From the IMG/VR virus record IMGVR_UViG_2703718873_000025: a stretch of DNA of 18,324 nucleotides; one strand, given 5' to 3'. Positions 6,001 through 9,000 of this stretch are shown one piece after another. How positions within the stretch are numbered: the first letter of the stretch is position 1; each line of letters starts with the position of its first letter. The DNA comes from a virus (Duplodnaviria > Heunggongvirae > Uroviricota > Caudoviricetes). Position numbers: made by a program.

Positions 6001-9000
6001 ATGTATTCAATGGCATGAATCACATCAATGACATCACCGCCCTGGATAAGGCCATTTCCCGCACTGGCACTGACATCCAGCATTTCAATACGGAATACAT
6101 CCTTCACCTGCGCAACATCCTCACCAGTACTGTTTTTACATACAGTATTACTTTTGAAGTCTGAGGTAAAGAGATCTGCAATATCAACACCTAAGCTCCT
6201 GGCAATATTACTCAGGGCTTGTTCAGTGAATTGTTTCTGCTTACCTGTTTCCAGGCGTGAGATATTCGCCGCATCCACTCCTATTGCTTCAGCGAGATCG
6301 GCGATTTTCATGTTCTTCGCCTGGCGAAGTTGTCTGACTCGATTTCCTATGTTCATGCGTTTATTACATTTCTTTATTGCGCGTTAAGCAAATCAACTTG
6401 CGCAAAATATTTGCGTGAAATAATATGCTTATCACGCAATATGTGGAGGTTATATGCAATCACCATTACGAAATGTGCGTAAGGCGCACGGATTTACTTT
6501 GCAGCATGTTGCTGCGGGTGTTCAGGTTAATCCAGCGACGCTGAGTCGTATTGAGAGACTGGAACAAATTCCATCTATCGATCTGGCAGAGCGTCTGGCC
6601 AATTTTTTTAAGGGAGAAATCAGCGAAATGCAGATTCTCTATCCTGCTCGCTTTCAATCTAGTCAAAACCGGAATGAGTTAAAACCACAGGAAAAGGAGG
6701 TAAGCCGTGGGTAAGCATCACTGGAAAGTGGAAAAACAGCCTGAGTGGTACGTGAAAGCGGTCAGAAAAACTATCGCGGCGTTGCCGGGTGGTTACGCTG
6801 AAGCAGCTGAGTGGCTGGATGTAACAGAGAACGCTTTATTCAATCGCCTTCGTGCCGATGGCGATCAGATTTTCCCGCTGGGATGGGCAATGATTTTACA
6901 GCGCGCGGCTGGCACTCACTACATTGCGGATGCTGTCGCACAGTCTGCTGGTGGGGTGTTTGTATCGCTTCCTGACATTGAGGAAGTAGAGAACGCCGAT
7001 ATAAACCAGCGCCTGCTGGAAGTCATCGAACAGATCGGGAGTTACTCAAAGCAGATTCGTTCGGCAATCGAAGATGGGGTAGTGGAGCCACACGAGCAGA
7101 CAGCAATGAATGATGAGTTGTATCTGTCAATTTCGAAGCTCCAGGAGCATGCGGCACTGGTCTACAAAATTTTCTGCGCTCCAGAAAAGAGTGACGCCCG
7201 CGAGTGTGCAGCTCCGGGCGTCGTGGCGTTTTGTGTCTGTGGAGAAACTAACGCATGAACAGTTTAACGGCAAATAACCGTTTGTCGCAACAGCTGGTGG
7301 TCAGTGTCGCTGCACACCTGTTGTTACGGCATGAATGCAGATTACCAAATCACCTGGCTGTAAGTAACCACAGAGAACTTTACCTGACTGTGGGGGGCGA
7401 GTTGTGCAGGAACTTAACCGCTGGTTTCGTGACGGAAGAGGGCTTTATGTTCATGTTATTCGTTGGGAACCAGAAACACAGCGCGTTATCTATCTTCGCA
7501 AAGACTACCCGCATGAGTGCTTTAGTCCTTTGTGGAAATTCAGGCGTGATTTTGTTGAGTGTGAAGGACCACCAGCACATTGATTCTGCCATTCCGGGAC
7601 GTTACACTGTTCAGGCACCTTATAAAGCGGGTGCCGGGATTGGCGTCCTGGAATTGCATACGGCGACAATTGGCGCGTTAGCGTCTTTTTTGTTGCTACA
7701 ACTCAGCTATACCCAAATTATGGTGGGCTGGGTGGGGGCACCGAAAGGTGCGCCGGTTTCCGTATGCGCCGGTTACGCCAACCCTGCTCAGTTCACCACC
7801 AGCGAAATTGGCGTTTCCGGTGGTGGAAGTTATCCATTGCATACGGAGGCTGCCATCATGGCTACGATCCCTGCCTTAGTACAACCTGAACTTTGCATTA
7901 TTGCAGACAAAGTTGTTACTTCTTCTCTGGCTGTTGCTAGTTATTTCGGCAAACAACACAAAAATGTCATTCAAAAAATTGCGTCTCTTGAATGCTCTGC
8001 CGAATTTACTGAGCTGAATTTTCAGCTCAGTGAGTACATCGACGCATCAGGCCGCAAACTACCTTGCTATCAAATAACCCGCGACGGCTTTGCGTTTCTT
8101 GCTATGGGTTTCACGGGTAAACGTGCTGCCCAGTTCAAAGAGGCATATATCAATGCCTTTAACCAGATGGAGAAACAGCTTTCAAAACCCCCTGTACCGA
8201 GCGACGTTGCACATAACGCCAGCGTTCTCTATTCCTACATTTCATCAATTCATCAGGTCTGGCTGCAGCAGCTTTATCCTATGTTGGCAAAAGCCGAATC
8301 TCCGCTGGCTGTTAGCTTGTATGACTATATTAATGATGCTTCGGCGCTGGCCTGCCTCATAAATTTGTCGCTGAACCCTTCAGAGGTAAGGGGGCGCAAA
8401 TGATCCGGAATATTTTCAAACGGTTTACCAATCAGACTTTCCGTTGTCCTCGTCCGGGTCAGTGGTATACCACACCTGCAGGGCATGTTCTACGTGTTAG
8501 CCTGGTTGACCGTGAATGTCAGAAGGTGATTTGTGAACCGCTGGGCCGTAATTACCGCGTCAGTATGCCGCTTATAGCCTTTCGCTCCGGAAAAAACATG
8601 AAGCATCTCGGAGGTGCAGCATGAGTATGGAGCTGATGGTTAAAGCGATGAAAATTCGAGTGGGTAATCCATTGCGAAAACTGGTTCTGATCAAGCTGGC
8701 TGATAATGCCAGCGATCAGGGTGAGTGCTGGCCCAGCTACCAGCATATTGCTGACCAGTGCGAGATTAGCAAACGTTCTGTGATGAATCATATTGCGGCC
8801 CTTTGTGAGTCCGGGCTGGTAAAAAAAGTCACCCGGAAAGGTGAAAAAGGTAACTCAAGTAATATCTATCTCCTTCATCTTGATGGTGCAGGAGATTCAC
8901 TAGGGGGTAGTGCAAATAATTCACTATCTGGTGCAGCAAATTCACCAGGTAGTGCAGGAGTTGCACCAGGGGGTAGTGCAGGAGATTCACCCAGAACCAG

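Follow-up and report, generated by a model that had tools for sequence, protein, structure and literature searches.

A putative replication origin embedded in the linker of an HTH_36 initiator gene of an Escherichia coli Shiga-toxin prophage

Introduction

Where does a lambdoid Shiga-toxin (Stx) prophage start its replication when its initiator lies outside the lambda O family and is not followed by a helicase loader gene? The question was raised by the virus record IMGVR_UViG_2703718873_000025, a stretch of 18,324 nucleotides (hereafter the window) in which a replication initiator (Rep) of 268 amino acids (aa) is encoded at 8621-9427 on the + strand. A sequence-only reading of this DNA had proposed iteron-like repeats at 8880-8995, inside the initiator gene, as a candidate origin. 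Based on the comparative analysis reported here, we propose that 8884-9033, within the linker-coding part of the initiator gene, is probably the replication origin of the Stx prophage. The repeats were located as named, but the proposed origin reaches further than had been claimed, to ~9033.

Stx prophage replication after induction amplifies the stx genes, and a correlation exists between replication-protein type and toxin output (PMC4645166). The HTH_36 types of replication protein include Eru5, 6, 8, 11 and 13 (PMC8951638). Confined to the classification of gene content, the same work makes no mention of iterons or of an origin, and it notes a complete lack of knowledge on Eru-phage replication proteins (PMC8951638).

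Iterons in the linker of the initiator gene

The repeats named in the sequence-only reading were all recovered: a 15-mer, GTGCAGGAGATTCAC, is present twice (8886 and 8976), a 12-mer, GGGGGTAGTGCA, twice (8903 and 8969), and a 9-mer, GGTAGTGCA, three times (8906, 8948 and 8972). Their position inside the initiator linker was also borne out, as they encode aa 88-124 of the open reading frame (ORF) 8621-9427. This peptide, GAGDSLGGSANNSLSGAANSPGSAGVAPGGSAGDSP, was predicted by AlphaFold2 (AF2) to be a disordered tether, with a predicted local distance difference test score (pLDDT) of ~30.

In addition to what had been noted earlier, every iteron unit was found to be an inverted repeat GTGCA/TGCAC. 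Five dyad-symmetric 19-bp repeats with the core GTGCA-N5-TKCAC (GTGCANNNNNTKCAC) are placed at 8886, 8910, 8931, 8952 and 8976, with spacings of 24, 21, 21 and 24 bp, close to two turns of the helix, and Tandem Repeats Finder reported periods of 21 and 24 for the array (8884-8992). Iterons 1 (TGGTGCAGGAGATTCACTA, 8884-8902), 2 (TAGTGCAAATAATTCACTA, 8908-8926), 3 (TGGTGCAGCAAATTCACCA, 8929-8947) and 5 (TAGTGCAGGAGATTCACCC, 8974-8992) each contain an exact GTGCANNNNNTKCAC match, at 8886, 8910, 8931 and 8976, respectively. Iteron 4 (TAGTGCAGGAGTTGCACCA, 8950-8968) matches exactly on both strands at 8952 and has perfect 5-bp arms, GTGCA/TGCAC; none of the five was assigned a strand. Iteron 5 adjoins the conserved element described below, and the last iteron does so in 91 of the 91 unique linkers listed. 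The array falls between the winged helix-turn-helix (wHTH) domain (aa 1-88) and the C-terminal domain (aa 155-212) of Rep. A consensus pattern search of the window returned 12 matches over both strands, ten of them within the array; in 200 dinucleotide shuffles the same pattern was matched 3.2 times on average and never as often as 12 times. No second iteron cluster was found elsewhere in the 18-kb window. The flanks outside the searched core read T at -2, R at -1, Y at +15 and A at +16 among 87 distinct linkers of the GTGCA class, which extended the dyad to a 19-bp site, TRGTGMA-N5-TKCACYA.

The same linker peptide was re-encoded in 20,000 synonymous versions using the codon usage of the window. 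These contained a mean of 0.04 consensus sites and at most 2, against the 5 observed (0 of 20,000 reached 3). Related phages use the motif in more than one way. Pseudomonas phage PseuP_222 has five sites (GTGCACCTCCTGCAC, GTGCAGCAGATTCAC, ATGCAGCAGGTTCAC, GTGAATCTCCTGCAC and GTGCAGGAGCTGCAC), of which the second lies in the other codon phase, being read V-Q-Q-I-H, and the fourth is the motif inverted. In coliphage mEp554 an identical 19-mer, GTAGTGTCAGAGAGACACC, is translated alternately as GSVRETP and GVVSERH. Phase-shifted sites amounted to 44 of 400 in the GTGCA class (class A), giving spacings of 22 and 23 bp beside the usual 21 and 24. Because re-encoding fails, phases shift and orientation inverts, the iterons are constrained as nucleotides, and they were evidently selected as DNA and not as peptide. 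A linker predicted to be disordered would leave DNA signals free to be encoded within it, and gain or loss of a whole 21-bp (7-codon) iteron keeps the reading frame. Length variants lacking the repeats, which the sequence-only reading had named as telling against an origin, were not found: homologues of 242-302 aa carry 2 to ~9 repeat copies and differ by whole repeats.

A further feature was recorded in the spacers. The spacer before the last iteron (8903-8909 and 8969-8975 in the window; linkers L006-L205) is nearly always a five-G run, AGGGGGT. Other classes have a five-C run, ACCCCCT, at the same spacer position, this being the complement and not the reverse complement of AGGGGGT.

The conserved 12-mer element

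A family-wide element was recognized at 8990-9033 (+ strand). It contains three ~12-mers, namely AGAACCAGTCAC at 8993, TGAACCAGTCAA at 9010 and a degenerate TGAACCAATAGC at 9022. A blastn search against phages showed that the 44 bp directly 3' of the repeats match Vibrio and Stenotrophomonas phages at ~95% identity, and 120 viral contigs were retrieved with that 44-bp sequence as the pattern. To avoid circularity, 80 bacterial loci were retrieved by N-domain protein alignment alone, without the linker; they came from Enterobacter, Pseudomonas, Marinomonas, Proteus, Rahnella, Xenorhabdus, Shewanella, Aeromonas, Providencia, Vreelandella, Zymobacter, Marinobacter, Microbulbifer and a Cardiobacteriaceae metagenome-assembled genome.

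The element consists of direct repeats of (A/T)GAACCAGTCA, present in 2-4 copies in 172 of 175 unique loci, with a spacing of 17 and then 12 nt. Within the N-domain-only sample, CCCAGAACCAGTCACTCTTTTGAACCAGTCAATGAACC was found in 72 of the 80 loci (at no more than 8 mismatches, mostly no more than 3), and some loci were scored as lacking the element only through small indels. In the window, exact copies of GAACCAGTCA occur in the element only; the other matches at up to one mismatch, at 14313 and 18258, were presumed to be chance.

The codons of the element are frozen. AGA was used in 67/70 (otherwise GGA, which is non-synonymous), AGT in 69/70 (otherwise TGT) and TCT in 67/70 (otherwise TTT or CTT). 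Two GAA columns stood at 69/70 and 64/70, with GAT as the only replacement and never GAG. GTC was used in 64/70 (otherwise GTA, ATC, TTC or GCC), CAC in 59/70 (otherwise AAC in 10 and CAG in 1, never CAT), and ACC in 40/70, where the remaining 30 were ATC and no synonymous ACN was seen. In contrast, invariant residues of the N-domain take every synonym: an Arg column was written as CGC 33, CGT 12, AGA 10, CGA 7, AGG 5 and CGG 3 times, and a Ser column uses all six codons. The first codon past the element is synonymously free again (CCT 30, CCA 22, CCG 13). Third-position conservation in a fixed-length column test was 0.92 in the element, 0.62 in the N-domain and 0.47 downstream; this test is only partly informative for the iterons, whose 21/24-bp spacings vary among loci of equal length.

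The reading frame is not kept either. The first half of the element in Shewanella is read in another frame, as CCA GAA CCA GTC ACT (PEPVT) against AGA ACC AGT CAC (RTSH). In Aliivibrio the element is three tandem 12-mers, and the distant members Psychrobacter phage Y8A and Pseudomonas phage MD8 carry 3 x GAACCTATCAAT and 4 x RGAACC-N6, respectively. The element is thus evidently constrained at the nucleotide level. It also forms a local minimum of duplex stability by nearest-neighbour calculation; among 54 loci from high-GC hosts, 35 had no less stable 40-mer within +/-500 bp. It was proposed to be an unwinding or loading site and the joint between modules. An RNA element was not supported, because Rfam searches of the whole window at gathering thresholds and of 8700-9200 at E <= 1 gave nothing relevant at the repeats, only a chance mir-875 match. 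Comparison by eye with the IHF and Fis consensus sequences gave no match to the element.

Iteron classes and the predicted recognition helix

The layout was common to every locus: N-domain, 2-7 direct repeats with a 21-24 bp period, the conserved element and a C-terminal half. More than 5,000 protein clusters make up the family, which spans at least 12 gammaproteobacterial genera, and its members include Stx2c phages, the cdtI phage and ST64B.

The repeat classes encode unrelated peptides, and most of them are dyad-symmetric. Class GTGCA/TGCAC encodes GSAGDSP, class GGGCA/TGCCC, as in Stx phage 24B, encodes GGAGAAP, class GTGAA/TTCAC encodes GSENFAL, class GTGAC/GTCAC encodes PSDKMSP, the class of TGCCA/TGGCA and TATGC...GCATA encodes PMPPKSIA, and class GTAGGC/GCCTAC encodes PVGPEST; a class GTGTA/TACAC was also recorded. 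Where the class changes, both arms change symmetrically and all copies at the locus change together, as a dimeric reader would be expected to impose.

The iteron class partitions with Rep residues 49-57. ISKRSVMNH or ISERSVQNH goes with the half-site GTGCA, xSRSTVKSH or IGRSTVKVH with GGGCA, IDRSTVRKH with TAGGC, and CSKSAVRxH with TGCCA or GCATA. Arg for Asn at position 56 goes with GTGAC in two backgrounds, ISKRSVMRH and CDKRTAMRH. The entropy profile of 100 distinct N-domains showed residues 14-48 to be nearly invariant and residues 49-53, 55-56 and 59-64 to be variable. These variable residues sit on AF2 helix 51-64, the third helix of the winged HTH. The codons of the predicted recognition helix (aa 49-64; ISKRSVMNHIAALCES, 8765-8812, + strand) therefore form a variable patch in an otherwise near-invariant domain, and the iteron half-site appears to track this helix across lineages.

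Natural recombinants were found as well. In the proteins P0063, P0070 and P0072, a foreign N-domain, together with the repeat type that belongs to it, is joined to what is essentially the C-half of the window; the junction lies at the conserved element, and the iterons stay with the N-domain.

Two deviating arrangements were also observed. Shigella phage SfII (L209, 1717-1880) has a distant HTH_36 Rep whose C-terminal end (...EDPYFKASYDNVDYSQIPAGFRG) is the same as that of the window protein, and its linker has another array, in which a 15-nt repeat (TCAAAATCTGACSCR) occurs 5-6 times and 2 x GATCCGTCAG comes next in place of GAACCAGTCA. In Pseudomonas bharatica CSV86 (L139) and Erwinia tracheiphila (L176) the Rep ORFs, which start at locus position 3001, undergo a frameshift inside the iteron array and end in the element or directly behind it (...HPEPVTLLNQ[S]*), leaving N-domain-only products of 133 and 118 aa. 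The two loci could belong to prophages in decay, or else supply a natural competitor for iteron binding.

The initiator protein and its C-terminal half

The Rep gene (8621-9427, + strand) was assigned by Pfam HTH_36, PHROG 270 and the AF2 domain map. Rep matched HTH_36 (PF13730) over aa 17-67 with 44.1 bits (cut-off 25), and this family was present in all 120 homologues listed; the match to PHROG 270, 'replication initiation protein', was 7.7e-88. The domain order predicted by AF2 is an N-terminal winged helix, a disordered linker, a small helical C-domain and a disordered tail. The winged-helix N-domain (aa 1-88; 8621-8884, + strand), proposed here as the iteron binder, was modeled with pLDDT 81-93 as helices 3-11, 17-29, 40-47 and 51-64 and a beta-hairpin wing at 67-85. 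The C-terminal helical domain (aa 155-212; 9083-9256, + strand) has helices 158-166, 176-189 and 193-210 with pLDDT 58-77.

A Pfam scan at E <= 0.01 returned HTH_36, DnaD_N, B-block_TFIIIC and HTH_20; Phage_rep_O was absent from these matches and there was no match to Rep_3 or WH1-WH2. The DnaD_N score, 24.4 bits, is under the Pfam cut-off of 27. The C-half matched PHROG 1701, 'DnaD-like helicase loader', at 9e-33 and no Pfam family. No relative was found in a PDB sequence search with the Rep protein, and an NCBIfam search gave no informative family. Foldseek with the full model listed generic wHTH proteins only, including DnaD-N 2v79 (E ~0.03), and found no match for the C-domain. PHROG names such as 'O-like' are annotation only. 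Rep is 'O-like' by organisation and not by family, because it is not a member of Pfam Phage_rep_O.

At least seven unrelated families of C-halves follow the element on the same module of N-domain, iterons and element, and the C-half family of the window occurs with at least eight types of recognition helix. The neighbouring genes also vary by phage, being a gp4-like helicase in 24B, DnaB in a Stenotrophomonas phage, a 'replisome organizer' in PseuP_222 and P-like loaders in MD8 and Y8A. In the window, the PerC-like gene follows Rep directly, and the annotation of the window genes by Pfam and PHROG gave no helicase or loader gene between cII and Q; the statement of the sequence-only reading that no P-like loader follows was thus upheld.

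The C-terminal tail of Rep, SQIPAGFRG (9398-9424, + strand), is identical in 8 of 9 positions to the last nine residues of E. coli DnaT (SQIPPGFRG), a protein that recruits DnaB-DnaC (PMC5778457). A second, unrelated C-half family also ends in P.GFRG, and close homologues have other tails, such as ...QDYGQSDCNW and ...GESGENLNF. This suggests that the tail is a swappable short motif recruiting host replication-restart or helicase-loading proteins, and we infer that the C-half and the tail together recruit host proteins. Direct recruitment of host factors by the initiator, as had been surmised, is plausible because the phage has no loader or helicase gene and Rep ends in DnaT-like residues. Rep was also considered as a whole-protein relative of DnaT, and this was rejected as the similarity is confined to the last nine residues.

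Proposed mechanism and alternative explanations

From the constraint, covariation and modularity read in the sequences, a course of binding, melting and loading was inferred. Rep would be made from the pR operon, and dimers of its N-domain would bind the GTGCA/TGCAC half-sites of the iterons and build an O-some-like complex. The resulting strain would open the adjacent, relatively unstable 12-mers at 8990-9033, possibly with help from Rep contacting one strand sequence-specifically. Tethered by the disordered linker, the C-terminal half would then bring the replicative helicase. Host DnaB-DnaC would be used, since the phage encodes no helicase or loader, and it might be recruited through the DnaT-like tail.

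Several observations weigh against the origin as proposed. Of the flanking AT-rich element that had been expected, a conserved 3' element was found, but at only ~58% A+T it is no generic AT-rich tract; in low-GC hosts a segment 100-150 bp upstream is often less stable, and the element is not the minimum in most of them. No DnaA boxes (TTWTNCACA) occur in the Rep region (the window matches are at 334, 14781 and 15469), there are no flanking GATC clusters, and a scan of 8300-9600 gave no promoter-like site and terminator-like sites at chance level only. The classes GTAGGC...AGCAC and TATGCC...GCATA are symmetric only in part. The correlation of helix and half-site, computed without tree correction, is in part phylogenetic linkage, because the two lie ~100 bp apart and are co-inherited. 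The DnaT-tail match (BLASTP against MG1655 DnaT) covers nine residues with E = 0.009 in a two-sequence comparison. In DnaT itself, the last ~20 residues form a flexible tail to which no function has been assigned (PMC5778457). Finally, the literature search retrieved no binding, unwinding or replication assay for any family member.

It is fairly unlikely, though conceivable, that the 12-mer element is not an unwinding or loading site but a patch of homology for the exchange of initiator halves, or that its role is in RNA or translation; neither case would prevent the iterons from being the origin. The element lies exactly at the crossover of the N- and C-modules, its A+T richness is only moderate, and a translation-level variant such as an N-domain-only product finds a parallel in the 133- and 118-aa products of L139 and L176. 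However, it is unlikely that 36 nt would stay frozen in Enterobacterales, Pseudomonas, Vibrio, Shewanella, Marinomonas and Stenotrophomonas through second-order selection for recombination, and Rfam offered no match for an RNA role. Moreover, 12-nt direct repeats beside iterons resemble the 13-mers of oriC and RK2, and the position is the same as that of the AT-rich region of lambda.

We consider it unlikely that the repeats are Rep-binding sites for autoregulation, handcuffing copy-number control or exclusion of related phages, with replication starting elsewhere. The comparative data reveal a binding-site-like constraint, which cannot by itself show initiation, and plasmid iterons also mediate handcuffing and autorepression (PMC5397158). 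On the other hand, the sites lie within a coding region, far from the operon promoter, and their position between the initiator halves, their number and spacing and their low-stability neighbour match the anatomy of an origin; neither a second iteron cluster nor another copy of the 12-mer is present elsewhere in the 18-kb window.

That the region is a slippage-prone, low-complexity Gly/Ser/Ala linker whose DNA repeats are a mere by-product of peptide repeats is highly improbable and already strongly disfavoured: the peptide is predicted to be disordered and copy number varies by whole units, as slippage predicts, but synonymous re-encoding never regains the DNA pattern, one DNA motif is read in various frames and orientations, and dyad symmetry is kept over unrelated peptides with changes symmetric and concerted over all copies.

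Returning to the origin within the initiator gene, we tentatively extend it to a portable 'origin cassette' of HTH_36 phage initiators that could be read from sequence. Its first component would be a code of helix and half-site, in which N at residue 56 corresponds to GTGCA, R to GTGAC, RSTVK to GGGCA and CSKSAVR to TGCCA. As the second component, the universal, frame-independent (A/T)GAACCAGTCA repeat would be the actual unwinding or helicase-loading site, read by the invariant portion of the initiator or by a factor that Gammaproteobacteria share, so that any C-half works. Thirdly, in phages lacking a loader the DnaT-tail mimic would hijack the host restart primosome or DnaB-DnaC. All three components holding jointly is possible rather than probable.

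Comparison with known origins

Iteron sequences differ in a type-specific way among lambda, 434, phi80 and 82, and the region next to them is conserved. In lambda, P27 and 933W, O dimers bind the iterons, O also binds the AT-rich single strand, and two iterons with the AT-rich region are enough for unwinding (PMC7466680). Like the origins of lambda, 933W and P27, the proposed origin is placed mid-way along the initiator gene, with a DNA-binding N-half on one side and a presumed helicase-recruiting C-half on the other, and the 4-6 direct repeats of ~19 bp with an internal dyad, bound by initiator dimers in those phages (PMC7466680), have a counterpart in the five repeats found here. As in ori-lambda, an easily melted region would lie on one side of the iterons, and the origin would be transcribed from pR. 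The parallel with lambda O drawn in the sequence-only reading thus holds for the repeats between the DNA-binding and C-terminal halves, but not for the protein, which is HTH_36 and not Phage_rep_O. The iterons are unrelated as well (GTGCA-N5-TGCAC here, ATCCCTCAAAACGAGGGA in lambda), the flank is a specific repeated 12-mer of ~42% G+C whereas that of lambda is a generic AT tract, and no P-type loader gene is present in the window phage, where the next genes are PerC-like, Dam, LexA-like and RusA. Judged by this analogy, the locus would work like the lambda origin with an initiator from outside the lambda O family.

The winged-helix initiators of iteron plasmids (F RepE, pPS10 RepA, RK2 TrfA/oriV) bind arrays of ~17-22-bp iterons, and the adjacent unwinding element of repeated 13-mers can be bound by Rep as single-stranded DNA. 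Plasmid iterons are usually intergenic, asymmetric and bound by monomers, whereas those described here are intragenic and dyad-symmetric. Plasmid origins also normally have DnaA boxes, which the Rep region lacks, and initiators of the Rep_3 or WH1-WH2 type, to which Rep had no match.

Origin repeats within the initiator coding sequence are also found in SPP1 G38P (oriL inside gene 38) and in lactococcal rep genes of the Tuc2009/r1t type, and in DnaD-like replisome organisers the C-half recruits the loader or helicase. The N-terminal winged helix of Rep resembles DnaD-N, although weakly by both the DnaD_N score and the Foldseek match to 2v79. The DnaD-like organisers differ in their Gram-positive hosts and repeat types, and we know of no GAACCAGTCA element in those systems.

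The principle of an origin inside an initiator gene is classical. What goes beyond the textbook case is the family-wide, frame-independent 12-mer, the readable pairs of helix and half-site and the DnaT-tail mimic. No description of this origin, of the iterons or of the 12-mer element was found in a literature search from which subscription journals were largely absent, and an older account is possible. The arrangement is common to thousands of related phages whose origins were previously unmapped. Placing the origin and the initiator for HTH_36 types would give concrete targets for experiments, typing or interference. The family also provides a natural series of matched initiator and iteron pairs for the study of DNA-recognition specificity and a clear case of DNA signals overprinted on a disordered protein linker.

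Genomic context

The window is an Escherichia coli lambdoid Stx prophage, as concluded from StxA and StxB, two transfer RNA (tRNA) genes and an STnc100 match in 14176-15965. Four kb of it are 100% identical to E. coli strain JNEC-KY202, and segments related to it were found in 3144 of 5426 complete E. coli genomes. The gene order begins with an integrase (1-1236), followed by cI (5664-6356, - strand), cro (6454-6714), a cII-like gene (6707-7258), a Rha/Ash protein (7255-8403), a 74-aa ORF (8400-8624) overlapping the Rep start codon, and Rep. Downstream of Rep are the PerC-like gene (9424-9918), Dam (9885-10571), the LexA-like gene (10568-10894), RusA (10891-11286), KilA-N and DUF968 proteins between RusA and Q, and Q (13275-14027). 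The tRNA genes (14176-14249 and 14266-14339) lie just upstream of stxA; StxA (14365-15393) belongs to the RIP family and StxB (15406-15669) to SLT_beta. The STnc100 small RNA (sRNA) match (15757-15965; Rfam, 184 bits) is located just downstream of stxB.

An early region with a Rha/Ash protein and then an HTH_36 protein defines the Eru6 type (PMC8951638). The window has the same arrangement, with Rha and Ash at 7255-8403 and HTH_36 at 8621-9427 after the cI/cro/cII block and stx downstream. The Eru6 reference phage Stx2a_WGPS2 has the same gene order after this block (PMC8951638), and its Rep N-domain is 98.9% identical to that of the window.

The 74-aa ORF (8400-8624) had no match in Pfam or NCBIfam and matched PHROG 1153, of unknown function, at 1.3e-45; in the E. 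coli relatives examined it is always located ahead of Rep. Within the Rha/Ash ORF (7255-8403), Rfam placed isrK at 7615-7691 (61 bits) and the C4 antisense RNA at 7716-7803 (81 bits), both on the + strand. An sRNA and immunity module may therefore overlap or interrupt the Rha/Ash annotation.

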